Assembly: GCA_963729625.1 (NCBI GenBank)
Contig: CAVSOU010000010.1
Coordinates: 96,001-160,000 of the forward strand
Direction: 5' to 3'
DNA length: 64,000 nucleotides
Source: an uncultured bacterium
GTDB lineage: Bacteria; Chloroflexota; UBA5177; JANWHV01
In this document: piece by piece, positions 52,852 to 59,306 of the stretch
How positions within the stretch are numbered: the first letter of the stretch is position 1
Layout of the letters: every line of letters begins with the position of its first letter
Program-made: the position numbers and the translations under genes
The notes under the pieces: model-generated
The model's database searches: none
Seen by the model: only the letters and a program-made list of their open reading frames with translations
What the model was told of the DNA's origin: nothing

Positions 52852-53310
52852 ATGGTAAAGGTCGTATTGAACAAGGACGTGGCAAATCTGGGCAAGGCGG
52901 GAGAAGTCAAGGATGTCTCTCCTGGCTACATGCGCAACTTTCTCATTCCGCAGGGCCTCGCGGTGCTTGCCACGTCCGGCGCGCTGAAGTCGCTGGAAAC
53001 GCGGCGGTCGCAAATTATCAAGGCGCACGAAAAGGCGCGTTCCGATGCGCAATCGCTGGCCTCACGTCTCGCTGACGTCTCGCTCGTGTTCCAGGTACGA
53101 GTAGGCGAGCAGAACCGTCTCTACGGATCGATCACGAGCAAAGATATCGCGGATGAGTTGGCGCGCGCTGCCGAGATCACCGTTGATCGACGTGATATCG
53201 AGCTACCGGAGGCACTCAAGACCCTGGGCAACTACAGCGTACCGGTGCGATTGGGCCACGACGTTAAGGCTTCCATCAACGTTACGCTGCAGGAGGCGGC
53301 CTCCGCTTGA
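52852..53310 (+). CDS. rplI: 50S ribosomal protein bL9
   Basis: DVANLGKAGEVKDVSPGYMRNFLIP, RLYGSIT..DIA. Confidence 0.98.
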   Translation: MVKVVLNKDVANLGKAGEVKDVSPGYMRNFLIPQGLAVLATSGALKSLETRRSQIIKAHEKARSDAQSLASRLADVSLVFQVRVGEQNRLYGSITSKDIADELARAAEITVDRRDIELPEALKTLGNYSVPVRLGHDVKASINVTLQEAASA

Positions 53311-54656
53311 TCATGGAGACACTCGCGGCTGGAGGCGAAGAGCATCTACCGCGCAGTCTAGAAGCTGAACAGGCCGTCTTGGGCAGTCTGCTTCTTGATC
53401 CCGATGCCATCATCGAAGTTACCGCGATTTTGCGACCGGATGACTTCGCGCATGATGCCCATGCAGTTACCTACCGCGTCATGGTCGACCTGTACGAGCA
53501 GCGCCGACCGGTAGACGTTATTACCGTCCTGGAGGAGGTCGAACGCCGCGACCTCCTTCAGCGCGCCGGCGGTAGGGGTTACGTGCTTTCGCTGGTCGAC
53601 GTCGTACCCACTGCCGTCCACGTCGAGCACTACGCGCGGATCGTGGAGCGACTTGCGGTTCTTCGCCGGCTGATACGTGCCGGTGGCCAAATTGTCAGCA
53701 TCGCTCAACGCGACGGCGTCGAGGTCGAGGAGGCGCTGAACGATGCCGAAGAAGTACTGTTTGCCGTGGCCCAGGGCAGGAGCAGCGCCGGCTTTGTGCC
53801 GATTCGCGAGGTGCTTACAACGATCCTCGAGCAGGCCGACTACGTACACGAACACCGCGGAGCCATCCTCGGCACCCCCACCGGTTTCGTCGATCTTGAC
53901 AAGATTCTGGGCGGGTTGCAGCGTTCGGACTTGATCATCGTCGGCGCCCGGCCTGCGCATGGCAAGACCGCTCTGGCCCTTGGCATGTGCCATAATGCTG
54001 CTGTGCGGTTCAAACAGCGGGTTGCCCTTTTTAGCCTGGAAATGTCAAAGGAGCAGCTCGTGCAGCGCTTGTTGTGTATGCAGGGCAGACTCGACAGCGG
54101 GCGCCTGCGGTCCGGCTATATTGACGAGGCAGAGTGGGGCAGGTTGATCGAGGCTGCGGGCGTCCTGTCTGAAACACGCATCTTCATCGACGATTCAGCC
54201 GGGATTACTCCCGCTGAGATGCGCAATCGTGCGCGCAGGTTGCAGGCCGAGCAAGGACTGGACCTCATCGTGGTCGACTACCTGCAGCTGATGTCGGGCC
54301 GAGCGTCCGAGAATCGTGTGCAGGAGATCAGTGGGATCTCTCGCGCTCTCAAGATTCTTGCCCGCGAGCTGAACGTGCCGGTGGTCGCTCTCTCGCAGGT
54401 GTCCCGCGGTGTGGACTCGCGTACTTCGCACGTTCCGCTGCTCTCGGATCTGCGCGAGAGCGGCAGTATCGAGCAGGACGCCGACGTCGTACTATTCCTT
54501 TGCCGTGAAGAAATGTACGATCCCGAGACCGAAAAGCAACACATCGCCGATCTCTATGTGGCCAAACACCGTAACGGGCCGACCGGGCAGCTTTCGCTGT
54601 ACTTTGACAAAGTTCAGACTCGATTCCGGGACCTTGAGGCCCGCGCGCCGCTATGA
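53307..54656 (+). CDS. dnaB: Replicative DNA helicase
   Basis: EAEQAVLG, ARPAHGKT, FSLEM, VDYLQLM, SDLRESGSIEQDAD, KHRNGPTG; no intein. Confidence 0.98.
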   Translation: MIMETLAAGGEEHLPRSLEAEQAVLGSLLLDPDAIIEVTAILRPDDFAHDAHAVTYRVMVDLYEQRRPVDVITVLEEVERRDLLQRAGGRGYVLSLVDVVPTAVHVEHYARIVERLAVLRRLIRAGGQIVSIAQRDGVEVEEALNDAEEVLFAVAQGRSSAGFVPIREVLTTILEQADYVHEHRGAILGTPTGFVDLDKILGGLQRSDLIIVGARPAHGKTALALGMCHNAAVRFKQRVALFSLEMSKEQLVQRLLCMQGRLDSGRLRSGYIDEAEWGRLIEAAGVLSETRIFIDDSAGITPAEMRNRARRLQAEQGLDLIVVDYLQLMSGRASENRVQEISGISRALKILARELNVPVVALSQVSRGVDSRTSHVPLLSDLRESGSIEQDADVVLFLCREEMYDPETEKQHIADLYVAKHRNGPTGQLSLYFDKVQTRFRDLEARAPL

Positions 54657-55387
54657 GCGGCTTTGCCGGATTTTACCCAAGCAAAGCGGCGAACACGCCG
54701 GTACCGGATGCGTTCTTCAGCATACTGCTTCCCGAGATCGATTCCCTGGTCGAGCTGAAGGTGACTCTGCATCTGTTTTGGCTGCTCGCCCGTCGAACCG
54801 GCCTGCCAAAGGCCGTGGCGCTCGATGACTTGCAGGCCGATCGCTTACTCCTGAGGTCGCTCAAGCCCTCGCGTGGACCGCGAACTGCCGAGGATTGCCT
54901 TCGTGAGGGTCTCGAGCTTTCGGTGACGCGTGGCACAGTGTTGATGGTGTCGCTCGGCCAAACCGAGAAGGATCTGCGCCGGTGGTATCTCATCAACACA
55001 CCGGCCAGCCGCGATGCCCTCGAGGCGCTACGGCGCGAGGAGATCGACCCTTCCGCTGCCCTCGGCGAGCAGGTGGGGGCCGTCGAGATCGTTCGCATCT
55101 ATCGCCCAAATATCTTTACATTATATGAGCGGAACATCGGCGTGCTGACGCCGCTTATCGCGGACCGACTTCGCGACGCGGAGTTGACCTATCCGCACGA
55201 GTGGATAAGCGACGCCATGAGGCGCGCGGTCGAACAGAACAAGCGCAATTGGGCGTACGTTGCCGCAATTCTCAAGCGGTGGGAGGCTGAGGGGAAGGCC
55301 AGTGGAATCGATCGGCGACATTCTGAAACGCCTGGAGATTCGGAGAAATACACCGGAGGGCGATACGGCCACGTCGTCGAATCGTGA
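54653..55387 (+). CDS. DnaD-domain replication protein
   Basis: NIFTLYERNIG.LTP, AVEQNKRNWAYVAAILKRW (DnaD YxxxILxxW motif). Confidence 0.88.
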   Translation: MSGFAGFYPSKAANTPVPDAFFSILLPEIDSLVELKVTLHLFWLLARRTGLPKAVALDDLQADRLLLRSLKPSRGPRTAEDCLREGLELSVTRGTVLMVSLGQTEKDLRRWYLINTPASRDALEALRREEIDPSAALGEQVGAVEIVRIYRPNIFTLYERNIGVLTPLIADRLRDAELTYPHEWISDAMRRAVEQNKRNWAYVAAILKRWEAEGKASGIDRRHSETPGDSEKYTGGRYGHVVES

Positions 55388-56141
55388 GTCCGCGCCGGTC
55401 TGCGATCGATGTGGAGGCGCTGGCTACCTGCGCCTTGACGTGCCGGTGGACGATCCCGGCTTTGGTACGATCGTGCCGTGCGGCTGCAAGGAGCGCGAGA
55501 TTACCGAGCGTCGGATGCAGCGCCTGCTCGAGAAGTCGAACCTGCGCGCTCTCTCAAGCATGACCTTCGAGTCGTTCCTCGTGGACGCGCCGCAGCGCAA
55601 CGCCTTCAAGCGCGCGCAGCAATATGCAGCCAATCCCGATGGCTGGCTCGTGATCATGGGCGGCTATGGTACAGGCAAGACCCATCTTGCCGCGGCTATC
55701 GGCAACTATCGGCTGGCAATGGGCGCGCCCGCCCTGTTTATGGTCGTTCCGGACCTGCTTGACCACCTGCGCTCGGCGTACGCACCTGGTAGTGAGCTGG
55801 GATATGACGACTTCTTCGAAGGAGTTCGCGAAGCCCCTCTTCTTATCTTGGACGATCTCGGGACCCAGATCAGTACCCAGTGGGCGACGGAGAAGCTCTA
55901 CCAGCTCTTTAATCACCGCTATATCCACCGCCTGCCAACGGTGATCACGACGAACAGCTCGCTCGACGAGATTGGCGGCCGGCTTGCCTCGCGGATGTCG
56001 GACCCCGTGATAAGCACCTGCGTGACGATCGATTCGCGCGACTTCCGAGGCGGTGTTGGCGATTCGGACGAGCCTGGCTCGTCGGCTTCACGGCAAACCC
56101 GGCGCCGGCCACGCGGCATCGAATATACCGACCGCCCCTGA
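55302..56141 (+). CDS. DnaC/DnaI (IstB-like) helicase-loader ATPase
   Basis: CxxC..CxC zinc motif, GYGTGKTHLA, LILDDLG, TVITTN, RLASRM; GTG 55302 after GAGGGG. Confidence 0.9.
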   Translation: MESIGDILKRLEIRRNTPEGDTATSSNRESAPVCDRCGGAGYLRLDVPVDDPGFGTIVPCGCKEREITERRMQRLLEKSNLRALSSMTFESFLVDAPQRNAFKRAQQYAANPDGWLVIMGGYGTGKTHLAAAIGNYRLAMGAPALFMVVPDLLDHLRSAYAPGSELGYDDFFEGVREAPLLILDDLGTQISTQWATEKLYQLFNHRYIHRLPTVITTNSSLDEIGGRLASRMSDPVISTCVTIDSRDFRGGVGDSDEPGSSASRQTRRRPRGIEYTDRP

Positions 56142-56162
56142 CAGTACCGGCTGCGAACGGGT

Positions 56163-56192
56163 TTGACACAGTGGCTTCCCGACCAAGATACT
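56163..56192 (+). promoter_or_regulatory. Sigma70 promoter for uORF-secD-secF
   Basis: TTGACA-18 nt-GATACT. Confidence 0.6.
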
Positions 56193-56257
56193 AGTGAGGA
56201 CTGGATGAGCAGCCTGCGGCGGCAGCAATCCGCGCGGTTCGAGGTAACTGAAACCTG

Positions 56258-56701
56258 ATGGGTGTGCGTTCCGTACCGTCGATATTGCGCACACTTGCTA
56301 TCTTCGTCGCTTCGCTCCATGCGACTGGCGGTGGCCTTGGCAGTGTGGTCGAAGCCCATGACCTCAGGCACGCGCCGGCGCAGCCCGTCGTACGAACCGA
56401 TGTGGCAGAACCAAGCTCGAGAACCGGCGCAGACGAGATCGCCGGCCAGACGTTACTGTTTGCCACCGCCGAACTGTCCTCACCGTCTCTACCAGGCTCT
56501 GTCGTTCGCCCTTTCGATTCGTCGCCGGTGCTGGCGCCTGGGCGGCGACCGATGGCCAGAGACCCGCGCTCGGCTCATTCCGCACAACAGGAGCCGCTAG
56601 CGCGCCAGGTCCGTGCGACCCAGCCGACTGTCGTTGAGTGGCTGGACATTGTCCTGACTTCAAGTCCAGCGAACGACCCACAGCGTATTCGCGCTCCGTA
56701 G
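56258..56701 (+). CDS. Putative secretion-monitor/translation-arrest leader peptide
   Basis: Signal-peptide-like N-terminus, low-complexity middle, C-terminus QRIRAP-stop; directly upstream of secD. Confidence 0.7.
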   Translation: MGVRSVPSILRTLAIFVASLHATGGGLGSVVEAHDLRHAPAQPVVRTDVAEPSSRTGADEIAGQTLLFATAELSSPSLPGSVVRPFDSSPVLAPGRRPMARDPRSAHSAQQEPLARQVRATQPTVVEWLDIVLTSSPANDPQRIRAP

Positions 56702-56703
56702 TC

Positions 56704-56811
56704 CGTCTCCTCCCAGTACGCGATGGCGTCCGGCAGCGTGGCCAGGCTCAATTGCGCCCAAGCTGCTCGGCCGAGTCCATACTCTTCACGTAGCACACTG
56801 AGAGGTAGACG
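56704..56811 (+). promoter_or_regulatory. Stem-loop sequestering the secD Shine-Dalgarno sequence
   Basis: CGTCTCCTCCCAGT (56704-17) pairs with ACTGAGAGGTAGACG (56797-811). Confidence 0.75.
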
Positions 56812-56812
56812 C

Positions 56813-58213
56813 ATGCGTCAGCGAGCCCAACTATTCTTGATAGGGATTATCGTCCTGACATTCGCCGCCGTCCTGGTAGACCTTGCCGGCACGGTAGGCA
56901 ACTTTAAGGTTTTCGGTCACGGCACGGCGATCCATCAAGGTCTGGACCTCACAGGCGGCCTGAGCATGGAACTGAAGGCGACCGACCATAAGGCCGCCAC
57001 GAGCGATGCCATGGCAGCCGCGATTGACATCATCACCAAGCGCGTCAACGCCTTTGGCGTGTCCGAGCCGATCGTAACGCAGCTTGGAAGTGACGCGATC
57101 GATGTCGAGATGCCTGGCGTCAGGGATCCGGAGGTCGTGCGCCAGACGATCGGCAGCACTGGCCAGCTCGTTCTCTACGGGATGGGCAGCCTGACCCCAC
57201 TGCAGGACGGCGCCACGTTTCCTTACTCAAACACGACCACGCTCTGTGATGCCAAGAACGCGCCGACTCCGTGCGTGGTCATGAAAGGAAGCGAGCTCGA
57301 TTCGAGCCAGATCGCGAATCAGTTCGATCAGTACGGCCAGCCAATAGTAACATTTGGCGCGAAGGGCGGCGCCGTCGGCCGCCTTGGGACTTACACGACC
57401 GACCACGTCGGGGAATACATGGCGTTTGTCCTCGACGGGAAAGTGGTGACCGATCCCAAGATCCAGTCGGCTATCACCGGCGGGAACGGTGAGATCAACA
57501 ACATCGGCAGCAGTGACACCGCCAAGGCCATTGCCATTCGTCTCAAGTACGGCGCGCTGCCCATCGCCTTCACACCGGAAGCCAGCAGCCAGATCAGCGC
57601 CACGCTGGGATCGCAGTATGTCCATGACAGCATAACCGCCGCCATCGTCGGCATTATCGTGGTTATGTTCTTCATGGTCGCGAATTACAGGCTGCCGGGA
57701 CTCGTTGCCGACATTGCACTGTTGATCTACACGTCATTAGCATTCGCAGTGTTCAAGCTCTGGCCGTTCAGCGGCAGCGGCGCCAGCGGCATCACGCTCA
57801 CGCTGGCCGGAATCGCCGGGTTCATCCTCTCGATTGGTATGGCGGTTGACGCAAACGTGCTCATCTTCGAGCGGCTAAAAGAGGAACTGCGTACGAACAA
57901 GACACTCGGAGCTTCTATCGAAGCCGGGTTCAATCGCGCGTGGACGAGTATTCGGGACTCGAATGTGAGCACGATCATCACCTGCTGCGTGCTGTATTGG
58001 TTTGGCCAGAATTACGGCGCGACCGTGATCGCGGGTTTCGCCACTACGCTCGGCATCGGCGTAGGAGTATCGATGTTCACGGCGATCGTGATCACGCGCA
58101 CGTTCCTGCGCGCACTCGTGCGAAGCAACAGCAGCTATCACCCGAAGTGGTTTGGCGCCGGTCTGGAGAACGTCAGTCCACAGACGCGGCCGACCAAGGG
58201 AGGGCAGGGCTAA
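56813..58213 (+). CDS. secD: Protein translocase subunit SecD
   Basis: GLDLTGG, RVNAFGVSEP, GALP, IGMAVDANVLIFERLKEE, DSNVST. Confidence 0.97.
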   Translation: MRQRAQLFLIGIIVLTFAAVLVDLAGTVGNFKVFGHGTAIHQGLDLTGGLSMELKATDHKAATSDAMAAAIDIITKRVNAFGVSEPIVTQLGSDAIDVEMPGVRDPEVVRQTIGSTGQLVLYGMGSLTPLQDGATFPYSNTTTLCDAKNAPTPCVVMKGSELDSSQIANQFDQYGQPIVTFGAKGGAVGRLGTYTTDHVGEYMAFVLDGKVVTDPKIQSAITGGNGEINNIGSSDTAKAIAIRLKYGALPIAFTPEASSQISATLGSQYVHDSITAAIVGIIVVMFFMVANYRLPGLVADIALLIYTSLAFAVFKLWPFSGSGASGITLTLAGIAGFILSIGMAVDANVLIFERLKEELRTNKTLGASIEAGFNRAWTSIRDSNVSTIITCCVLYWFGQNYGATVIAGFATTLGIGVGVSMFTAIVITRTFLRALVRSNSSYHPKWFGAGLENVSPQTRPTKGGQG

Positions 58214-58259
58214 TGTTTGTGCAGGCTGCCGGACGCTTCACGGCTGGGGGATCACGCTC

Positions 58260-59306
58260 ATGATTAACATCATCAGGTATCGCTACTGGTATTTCCTGTT
58301 CTCGCTGTTGATCATCGTTCCTGGTTTCGCGTTCTTCCTAGCGGGAGGGCTGAAGCTCGGAATCGACTTTACGGGCGGCACAGAGCTCACGCTGCGGTTC
58401 AGCACGGTCCAGGCCAGCGCACACCTGGAGGATCAGATTCGTAGCGCGGTGATCAGCGGCGCCAAGCTAAGCGAAGCGGAGGTGATTTCGTCGACGCCTC
58501 TCGGCGGCGCAGCAAACAACGGCGCCCACTATCTCGTGCGCATTCCATTCATTGGCGACTCGCCGCAGAAGCTGGCGGCCGTCCTGGCGCCGCTCTATCG
58601 CGAATACGGTTGCGGCTCGCTCGTGAAGACCACGGCTCCCGGGCTTTACAAGGTGCCATTGCCCACCTGCAAGAACTTGGCGCTCGAGCAGGAAACCGAC
58701 GTCGGCGGCGCAATTGGCTCGCAGATTCGTTCGCGCGCCGCGACAGCGGTGGTCATCGCCGCCGCGTTCATCCTGCTGTATATATCCTTTGCCTTCCGCA
58801 AGGTGGCTCACCCGTTCCGCTACGGAACGTGCGCCATCATCGCATTGCTGCACGACGTTCTGGTGGTCATGGGGCTTTTCGCAATCTTTGGCAGGGCGCT
58901 CGGCGTGACCGTGGACTCGTTGTTTGTCACGGCCGTGCTCACCGTTATCGGTTTCTCGGTGCACGATACAATCGTTATCTTCGACCGAATTCGTGAGAAT
59001 ATGGCGCGCCGTATCGGCGAGCCCTTCGAGCTTGTCGTCAACAACGCCATCCTTCAGTCGATGGCACGCTCGTTGAACACGTCGCTGACCGTGCTGATGA
59101 CACTGACCGCGCTCTTGCTGTTCAGTGGGGCCAGTATCCGGATTTTCGTCGTGACGCTTCTTATAGGAATTACAAGTGGGACATATAGCTCGATCTTCAA
59201 TGCGAGCCCACTCTTAGTAGTGTGGGAGAACGACGAGCTAGGGATAGGCAAGTTTCTTCAGCGGTTCAGGAGGAGCAAGACCGGGCGGCCGGCTACCGCG
59301 CGTTAA
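58260..59306 (+). CDS. secF: Protein translocase subunit SecF
   Basis: GIDFTGGT, ALLHD, GFSVHDTIVIFDRIREN, GTYSSIFNASP. Confidence 0.97.
   Translation: MINIIRYRYWYFLFSLLIIVPGFAFFLAGGLKLGIDFTGGTELTLRFSTVQASAHLEDQIRSAVISGAKLSEAEVISSTPLGGAANNGAHYLVRIPFIGDSPQKLAAVLAPLYREYGCGSLVKTTAPGLYKVPLPTCKNLALEQETDVGGAIGSQIRSRAATAVVIAAAFILLYISFAFRKVAHPFRYGTCAIIALLHDVLVVMGLFAIFGRALGVTVDSLFVTAVLTVIGFSVHDTIVIFDRIRENMARRIGEPFELVVNNAILQSMARSLNTSLTVLMTLTALLLFSGASIRIFVVTLLIGITSGTYSSIFNASPLLVVWENDELGIGKFLQRFRRSKTGRPATAR

Follow-up and report, generated by a model that had tools for sequence, protein, structure and literature searches.

Arrest peptides that exert feedback control over SecDF are known from Proteobacteria, Firmicutes, Bacteroidota and Actinobacteria. 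SecM, the leader peptide of secA in Escherichia coli, stalls the ribosome five codons before its stop codon. In this study, we describe a candidate locus of this kind from an uncultured Chloroflexota bacterium (genome G000, assembly GCA_963729625.1), located in a stretch of 64,000 nucleotides (nt) of contig CAVSOU010000010.1 (positions 96,001 to 160,000 of the forward strand; hereafter the window, in which all coordinates are given unless stated otherwise). An upstream open reading frame (uORF) ends in the residues R-A-P directly before a UAG stop codon, and the messenger RNA at and behind this stop codon is predicted to pair with the ribosome-binding site (RBS) of secD, which follows after a spacer of 111 nt. 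We consider it somewhat more probable than an even chance that the uORF product monitors Sec activity and that its arrest at UAG, through R-A-P, opens the mask over secD.

The closest described systems form the RQH family or RAPP-like class (uDF_RQH, ApdA and ApdP). According to Fujiwara 2024 (PMC10987492) and Sakiyama 2021 (PMC7897499), these are small uORFs of no known family that lie directly 5' of secDF; their products start with an export signal and end in an R-A-P-x motif, the two being separated by a variable spacer (more than 30 residues), and an intergenic stem-loop lies over the secDF Shine-Dalgarno (SD) sequence. The present locus has the same layout, with a likely export signal and a predicted stem-loop. 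For uDF_RQH_Enterobacterales, Fujiwara 2024 reports stem mutations which prove that the stem-loop masks the SD of secDF2. The present locus differs in that Pro never follows RAP, its place being taken by a stop codon in the window and by Cys, Asn, Asp or Ser in relatives, in its host, which belongs to the little-studied phylum Chloroflexota, in that the putatively regulated secDF is the only copy found and not a second paralog, and in being known from sequence alone.

Additional likenesses are found among systems that stall at a stop codon or with a residue other than proline in the A site. In uDF_NAP-stop and uA_NSP-stop of Bacteroidota, x-A/S-P stands directly before the stop codon upstream of secDF or secA, and toeprints in Fujiwara 2024 place the stall with the stop codon, which is needed, in the A site; the residue at -3 is Asn in those peptides and Arg in ours, the phylum is another one, and no sequence similarity has been established. 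ApcA of Actinobacteria (RAPG; PMC7897499) has R-A-P in the P-site peptide and a non-proline residue in the A site, but its downstream gene is yidC and not secDF, its signal is of the transmembrane type, and it is likened to the uORF by motif and not by homology. SecM-secA shares an exported leader, a motif with I-R-A-(G)-P and an SD-sequestering stem-loop that is disrupted by the stalled ribosome (PMC10987492 and PMC7897499), whereas its stall has Gly as the P-site residue and Pro-tRNA bound in the A site; the pause proposed here would occur at the stop codon itself, with secDF as the target. By analogy, the logic of the locus would be that of SecM, VemP and MifM and, more precisely, that of the RAPP-like class (RQH, ApdA/ApdP/ApcA).

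The main text of Fujiwara 2024 does not contain the string 'Chloroflex', which among the readable supplements occurs only in the genome list; the large file MOESM6, taken to be the table of secDF candidates, lies outside this check, and the family may already be listed there. A literature search returned no paper linking arrest peptides to Chloroflexota beyond a figure legend on proteome statistics.

The masking helix and the organisation of the locus

The features of the locus to which the following sections refer are:

56163..56192, + strand: promoter-like site TTGACA-18-GATACT, sigma-70-like, ~65 nt 5' of the uORF start
56258..56701, + strand: uORF of 147 codons (from the list of open reading frames), with a signal-like N-terminus, a variable middle rich in P, A, S and R, and a C-terminal PQRIRAP followed by TAG
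56258..56335, + strand: signal-peptide-like N-terminus MGVRSVPSILRTLAIFVASLHATGGG, from a Kyte-Doolittle window and conservation
56690..56701, + strand: R-A-P codons CGC GCT CCG and stop codon TAG, proposed site of arrest or termination pause (P site 56696-98, A site 56699-701)
56699..56717, + strand: 5' arm of the masking helix (core 56704-56717; anti-SD CCUC at 56709-12; the start codon is partnered by U and A of the stop codon)
56718..56784, + strand: inner hairpins of the spacer at 56718-29, 56730-70 (with GCAGC/GCUGC) and 56773-84, in the minimum free energy (MFE) structure
56782..56804, + strand: alternative weak local hairpin, CUCU 56782-85 with AGAG 56801-04, which takes the SD in constrained folds when the 5' arm is blocked
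56797..56815, + strand: 3' arm, comprising the SD GAGAGG (56800-56805), the linker and the secD ATG (56813-15), from the sequence and pair probabilities
56813..58213, + strand: secD (Pfam SecDF_P1_head, SecD_1st and SecD_SecF_C)
58257..59306, + strand: secF (Pfam SecD_SecF_C at 5e-50, and Sec_GG)

A first-pass annotation of this DNA had described a stem of 13 base pairs with one bulge and one mismatch which begins shortly after the uORF stop codon and masks the SD just 5' of the ATG at 56813. This stem was confirmed both in the sequence and in the MFE structure: positions 56704-56717, CGTCTCCTCCCAGT (also given as CGUCUCCUCCCAGU), and 56797-56811, ACTGAGAGGTAGACG (also given as ACUGAGAGGUAGACG), form 13 pairs with U56806 bulged and C56713 opposite A56801 as the mismatch, and GAGG of the SD (56802-56805) pairs with CCUC at 56709-56712. 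The helix is part of the MFE structure of 56690-56830 (-53.1 kcal/mol, z -1.75, 7 of 200 shuffles as good) and of 56702-56815 (-43.9 kcal/mol, z -2.53, 1 of 200 shuffles as good), and it is kept when 60 or 150 nt of extra upstream context are included. Pair probabilities are 0.87-1.00 in 12 of the 13 pairs and 0.75 in the outermost pair (C56704-G56811), while the duplex energy of the arms is -18.5 kcal/mol. Furthermore, the helix extends beyond this core into the stop and start codons, where U56699 is paired to G56815 and A56700 to U56814 (probability ~0.7). Within the folding model the helix is confirmed as real, and the expectation that folding would favour it was borne out in both segments.

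The whole 111-nt spacer is a closed multibranch fold in the MFE structure. Two inner stems had been proposed in the first-pass annotation, of which GCAGC/GCUGC (56733-37/56762-66) is present, while UACGCGA/UCACGUA is absent and a local ACGC/GCGU hairpin at 56718-29 takes its place.

The position 56813 is the start common to the SecD orthologs (M-R-x...), and in the related genome G001 the secD frame is closed six codons 5' of the matching start. SecD has a single match at E<=1e-20 in this genome, and this secDF is the only copy found. The site at 56163-56192 is the sole sigma-70-like site within 55900-57000; a transcription start for secD inside the spacer had been named earlier as a possible objection to the stem, and the scan of this region found no promoter-like site there. 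The promoter hexamers are identical in G001 and lie at an equal distance (~65 nt) 5' of the uORF, and TTGACA-18-CATACT was recognised by eye 5' of the uORF in L009 and L028, two loci of the related clade B (described below), where the script pattern did not flag it.

Two contigs from RNA libraries start in the final part of the uORF, cross the spacer and reach into secD. X6 spans 56687-56832 with four differences, none of them in either arm; X12 spans 56626-56827, and its 5' arm is unchanged although it has 18 differences in all, seven of which are unlisted and may lie near the contig ends (the region of the 3' arm). Variants of these two contigs at 56739, 56743 and 56744 sit in the inner hairpins, where those at 56743 and 56744 would break predicted pairs. 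The DNA contigs X1 and X4 do not reach the spacer. X6 and X12 are taken as no more than a weak hint of co-transcription of the uORF and secD, because DNA can occur in RNA libraries.

An alternative reading is that the spacer acts in mRNA processing or stability and not as a translational switch, for example as a site for a double-strand RNase or as a 5' protective structure for a processed secDF mRNA. The closed multibranch fold would suit such an element, and GC-rich hairpins likewise occur in the secD leaders of relatives that lack the uORF. Against this, the helix ends exactly on the SD and AUG at one side and on the stop codon at the other, the scan of 55900-57000 found no terminator-like site, 56000-57000 gave no Rfam match at E<=1, and there is no sign of cleavage, with both X6 and X12 running through the spacer. 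We regard a processing or stability role as very improbable.

Effect of a ribosome at the uORF stop codon

The effect of a paused ribosome was modelled by holding -12..+15 around the Pro codon at 56696 single-stranded, and the energy needed to open -16..+4 of secD served as the read-out; this measure was chosen because the equilibrium probability that the SD is unpaired barely moves with the footprint. If the P site is occupied by the Pro codon (56696-98) and the A site by TAG, a footprint that ends at +12 to +15 would cover 56699 to ~56711, a segment containing the partners of the AUG, the linker between SD and AUG, and GG(A) of the SD. The RBS partners as a whole lie at +3..+21 from the P-site codon. 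The predicted opening cost falls from 15.2 kcal/mol in the free RNA to 8.0 kcal/mol in the stalled state (17.6 to 9.2 kcal/mol in a shorter context), corresponding to a stall-dependent drop of 7.2-8.4 kcal/mol. The cost decreases stepwise across the last four codons (P site from 12 nt before the stop codon), with its minimum at the last codon among the seven P-site positions tried. The geometry and the opening cost fit the earlier proposal that a ribosome at 56699-56701 would cover the 5' arm, as far as ~56711; its second part, that the SD would be freed, was not borne out in the equilibrium model, as discussed below.

The drop was compared with shuffled and natural sequences. When the interior of the spacer was shuffled while the end of the open reading frame (ORF) and the RBS were kept, the free opening value was reached in 3 of 120 shuffles and the drop of 8.4 kcal/mol in none of 120. 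The natural control, based on crude gene calls, comprised every pair of co-directional ORFs in this genome that is separated by 70-160 nt (306 pairs, the uORF-secD pair itself not being among them); the drop in this set has a median of 0.1 kcal/mol (standard deviation 1.6) and is at least 8.4 kcal/mol in a single pair, while a free opening energy of at least 17.6 kcal/mol occurs in 5 of 306. According to these models, the helix and its stall-dependent drop are more than chance. The predicted helix, its dominance of the ensemble, its statistical unusualness and the footprint geometry are in silico observations, as is the conservation of the peptide family described in the next section.

The sole natural pair matching the drop (8.6 kcal/mol) lies outside the window at C14:47522-47636 of the same genome, also with a spacer of 111 nt. 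Its upstream gene is an ORF of 424 residues, resembling a secreted glycoside hydrolase, that ends in ...SPRSPIPS-stop, and the downstream ORF is glycosyltransferase-like; the drop at this pair may reflect chance or translational coupling.

The uORF peptide family

Sequence searches yielded a family of 28 distinct proteins of 142-166 residues, present in all five genomes of one Chloroflexota genus and in none of 396 other sampled genomes of the phylum. The uORF product has no Pfam family at E<=0.01. Its identity with YajC was considered and rejected, given that the uORF has no Pfam match and that the genome, which is 87% complete, has no Pfam YajC match.

An Arg-rich hydrophobic N-terminus is conserved in all 28 proteins (consensus MRxRSxPRWLRTALVFLASLQAARAG), each of which contains a hydrophobic 11-residue window (Kyte-Doolittle 1.67-2.19) preceded by one to five Arg or Lys residues; the best such window of the present uORF scores 1.93 at residues 9-19, with Arg before it. 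From these sequence characteristics, an export signal at the uORF N-terminus is likely. The fraction of sequences sharing the majority residue is 0.71 for residues 1-30, falls to 0.34 in the hypervariable residues 31-140 and reaches 0.88 in the last five. R145, A146 and P147 are invariant alignment columns, and a contiguous C-terminal RAP is present in 27 of the 28 sequences. The position after RAP is occupied by Cys in 14 sequences, a stop codon in six (all R-I-R-A-P), Asn in three, Asp in three and Ser in one; members without a stop codon at this position carry a tail of 5-8 residues after RAP, which appears partly variable by eye and in many cases ends in G-N. Additionally, all three nucleotide changes within the RIRAP codons between G000 and G001 are synonymous, as are all four within the PQRIRAP codons of the X12 contig. 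The only protein of the 28 that lacks a contiguous RAP is P0015, whose last ~25 residues look unrelated to the family, as from an assembly frameshift.

The family agrees with search criteria (i), (iii) and (iv) of Fujiwara 2024, and the export signal of criterion (ii) is likely. For criterion (i), the uORF is small, has no Pfam family and precedes secD by 111 nt, with SecD and SecF domains encoded downstream; for criterion (iii), the contrast lies between RAP and the last five residues on the one hand and the weakly conserved middle on the other; and for criterion (iv), the value is 111-135 residues in the 27 sequences with RAP. With respect to the R/Q/H-A/G-P-x motif class, RAP*, RAPC, RAPD and RAPS are on the published query list and among the uORFs clustered with ApcA, and RAPN is not in this list. 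According to Sakiyama 2021 (PMC7897499), arrest by ApcA/ApdP at R-A-P is supported by several A-site residues, including Cys, Asn, Ser and Asp. Judged by these hallmarks of its sequence, the uORF product would be a RAPP-like Sec-monitoring arrest peptide.

An alternative arrangement would be plain translational coupling, in which the uORF encodes an ordinary exported protein whose terminal Pro slightly slows termination, and the helix makes secD initiation dependent on terminating ribosomes that briefly melt it. Every ribosome that terminates on the uORF would fit the same helix and footprint geometry, the stem is transiently opened even by an arrest-defective mutant in Fujiwara 2024 (PMC10987492), and arrest at the present locus is proposed by analogy. 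An ordinary protein, however, would not be expected to join a hypervariable middle to an invariant R-A-P that is followed by either a stop codon or variable tails of 5-8 residues, and such a protein would sit poorly with a uORF that lacks a Pfam family and with C, N, D and S after RAP, which match the arrest-permissive set of ApcA/ApdP. We hold coupling of this kind to be unlikely and favour arrest by the uORF peptide.

Conservation of the mask among relatives and points against arrest

Two full RAP-stop spacers were compared, those of G000 and G001, whose SecD proteins are 88% and uORF products 46% identical. The contig of G002 ends inside the uORF, and the further RAP-stop members P0004-P0006 and P0020 entered the comparison as proteins only. 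A metagenome scan with the uORF alignment returned two loci, L027 (cut inside the uORF) and L028 (nearly identical to G003); a scan of genome contigs with SecD for more spacers returned none, and one with alignment A3 returned the G003 contig only.

When the ORF end is included in the fold, the RBS of G001 (-17..+2) is predicted to pair with -10..+7 around the same Pro and stop codons (probability 0.9-1.0 in 14 of 20 nt), and this helix, shifted by 13 nt relative to that of G000, lies wholly inside the footprint of the paused ribosome. The opening cost in G001 is 18.9 kcal/mol in the free and 10.7 kcal/mol in the stalled state, values reached by shuffles in 0 of 120 (free) and 3 of 120 (drop), and the stall-dependent drop ranges from 4.2 to 8.2 kcal/mol. 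In both genomes, the predictions show SD sequestration of the SecM type in the free mRNA, with most SD nucleotides paired at probabilities of 0.9-1.0, and a footprint that overlaps the arm. The secD loci of the class were also compared for occlusion of the RBS; 16 of 20 were analysed by our count, while L013, L019, L022, L024 and L026 are named as not analysed (three missed by the frame filter, two without the secD 5' end). The most occluded secD RBSs among the 16 are those of G001 (18.7 kcal/mol) and G000 (16.0 kcal/mol), followed by 10.2-11.9 kcal/mol in the three clade B loci and 5.2-12.6 kcal/mol in the 11 loci without the uORF, one of which (L018) is from an unpublished genome (G018). At the level of these models, the recurring feature is one of function only, in that the RBS pairs with the neighbourhood of the stall site.

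Clade B comprises the RAP-Asn and RAP-Asp loci G003, G004 and L028, in which RAP lies eight codons before the stop codon and the spacers carry other hairpins. In folds starting from the Pro codon, CCC/GCCGU pairs with GGG/GCGGU, which comprise the GGG of the SD and its flank, in all three, with every pair invariant; with upstream context, the SD prefers GCCCU[UA], 29-33 nt upstream. The opening minimum of G004 falls exactly at the RAP codon.

In the spacers of L009, L010 and L028 (alignment A5), two strong GC hairpins are seen, the first of which pairs CCCUU with UGGGG, so that an anti-SD-like stretch is held by an SD look-alike, and the codons that immediately follow RAP form a long-range helix with UGCCUGG(A/G)C of the spacer, again with all pairs invariant. 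The clade B spacer may accordingly be a multi-part switch.

A number of results weigh against the proposed arrest mechanism. When the footprint is imposed, the probability that the SD is unpaired moves from 0.17 to 0.15-0.22, i.e. it remains ~80% paired in the equilibrium model, since the SD re-pairs with CUCU 56782-85 in the local hairpin 56782-56804; a 33-nt piece spanning this hairpin (56780-56812) folds at -4.2 kcal/mol. That this probability stays almost unchanged and that opening energy is used in its place is a weakness of the model and not a confirmation, and the switch, if real, would exchange a lock of -18 kcal/mol for one of -4 kcal/mol and would leave the SD still partly closed. 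Compared column by column in the alignment, G001 keeps eight of the 13 pairs and breaks five, and the G001 spacer alone folds no better than shuffles (z -0.5). Covariation across orthologous spacers, which had been proposed as a check on the stem, did not show between the two full RAP-stop spacers, with no compensatory change at the 13 pairs in G001, nor in clade B, with none at 38 consensus pairs. The predicted effect of the stall is inconsistent in clade B (from 11.4 to 5.9 kcal/mol in G004, from 7.9 to 9.3 kcal/mol in G003 and L028), and this clade shows no consistent mask in the models and allows no conclusion. Among the 306 natural pairs, 11 have an arm duplex of -18.0 kcal/mol or lower, and in a cruder control within the window the free RBS opening energy is only the fifth highest of 35 starts, which is high and not extreme for a GC-rich genome. 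Furthermore, the N-terminal signal was judged from hydropathy and conservation, the X6 and X12 contigs cannot show a single transcript, an RNA origin or a 5' end, and the mechanism is drawn by analogy with arrest peptides of other phyla.

Several of these results would also be expected if the helix were an incidental product of GC-rich, CU/GA-rich sequence and the secD RBS merely structured like many in the genome: the rank among the 35 starts, the 11 natural pairs with an equal or stronger arm duplex, the unrelated pair at C14:47522 with its comparable drop, the five uncompensated broken pairs in G001 and the inconsistency of clade B. An incidental helix does not, however, readily account for a drop matched by no shuffle of 120 and by one natural pair of 306, for its recurrence in G001 through different nucleotides, or for the finding that occlusion of the secD RBS, compared over 16 loci, is greatest in the two RAP-stop genomes, and we assign this explanation a low probability. 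The first-pass annotation had regarded the stem as independent support for the arrest-peptide model; it is consistent with that model but is not independent proof, because the SD re-pairs, the helix is not conserved in G001 and clade B is inconsistent. The earlier reading of a stem opened by the ribosome is, by the modelling, partly supported.

Leader regions and gene neighbourhood

The uORF itself has an SD-like GAGG 13 nt before its ATG (56241-56260), an unusually long spacing that is identical in G001 and similar in clade B (GAGAGGA); a weak initiation of the uORF may be intended, or another feature may define its start. In the uORF-less relatives (L011-L025, families f2 and f3), a promoter-like site TTGAC...TA[TG]ACT lies ~100 nt before secD and is followed by a conserved GC-rich hairpin, GGCGCCCC...GGGGCGCC with a U-rich tail in f3 and GCCAGGCG...CGCCUGGC in f2, which may be a leader element.

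Directly 5' of the uORF promoter, 53307-56141 (+ strand) holds genes for a dnaB-like helicase, a DnaD/DnaB_2-domain protein and a DnaC/IstB-like loader, with overlapping ends. The same DnaC-like gene is found 5' of the uORF or of secD in both genus g1 and family f2, while family f3 has a different upstream gene (GHTHGGQ motif).

Proposed mechanism and its significance

In the proposed mechanism, the promoter at 56163-92 would drive a single transcript comprising the 147-codon uORF, the 111-nt spacer and secD-secF. At rest, the helix 56699-56717/56797-56815 (~-18 kcal/mol) would lock the SD, linker and AUG of secD, and secDF initiation would be low. The uORF product would be a Sec-targeted monitoring peptide whose invariant R-A-P makes the ribosome pause while Pro-tRNA occupies the P site and UAG the A site; the mRNA channel of the paused ribosome would hold 56699 to ~56711, and therefore the helix could not form and secD initiation would become possible. 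The stalled state would leave a weak local hairpin (~-4 kcal/mol) on the SD, from which the 30S subunit could start secD. Under efficient export, pulling on the nascent chain would soon end the pause and the helix would re-form, whereas slow export would prolong the pause and SecDF would be made. The pause, its ending through the Sec machinery and the consequence for translation of secD are inferred.

A further, tentative proposal, which we think possible though doubtful, is that one family has moved from elongation arrest (RAP followed by Cys, Asn, Asp or Ser and a tail of 5-8 residues) to termination arrest (RAP-UAG), with the masking arm following the stall site by means of different nucleotides. 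If this is true, the arm would lie at +3..+21 in G000, at -10..+7 in G001 and possibly at the Pro codon itself in clade B, and selection would keep the rule that the secD RBS pairs with mRNA inside the paused ribosome and not a given helix. R-A-P would then block release-factor-mediated hydrolysis as well as peptidyl transfer.

For annotation, the analysis flags a conserved 'hypothetical protein' as a probable regulatory leader and gives the start and RBS of secD. The family would offer a natural series, in which a shared signal peptide and RAP come before either a stop codon or C, N, D or S, for studying how the RAP chain disables the peptidyl-transferase centre towards different A-site ligands, including a release factor, and a case for studying how a helix that masks the SD is re-established after a shift of the stall site. 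The locus would extend arrest-peptide control of SecDF to Chloroflexota, with R-A-P placed directly on the stop codon.

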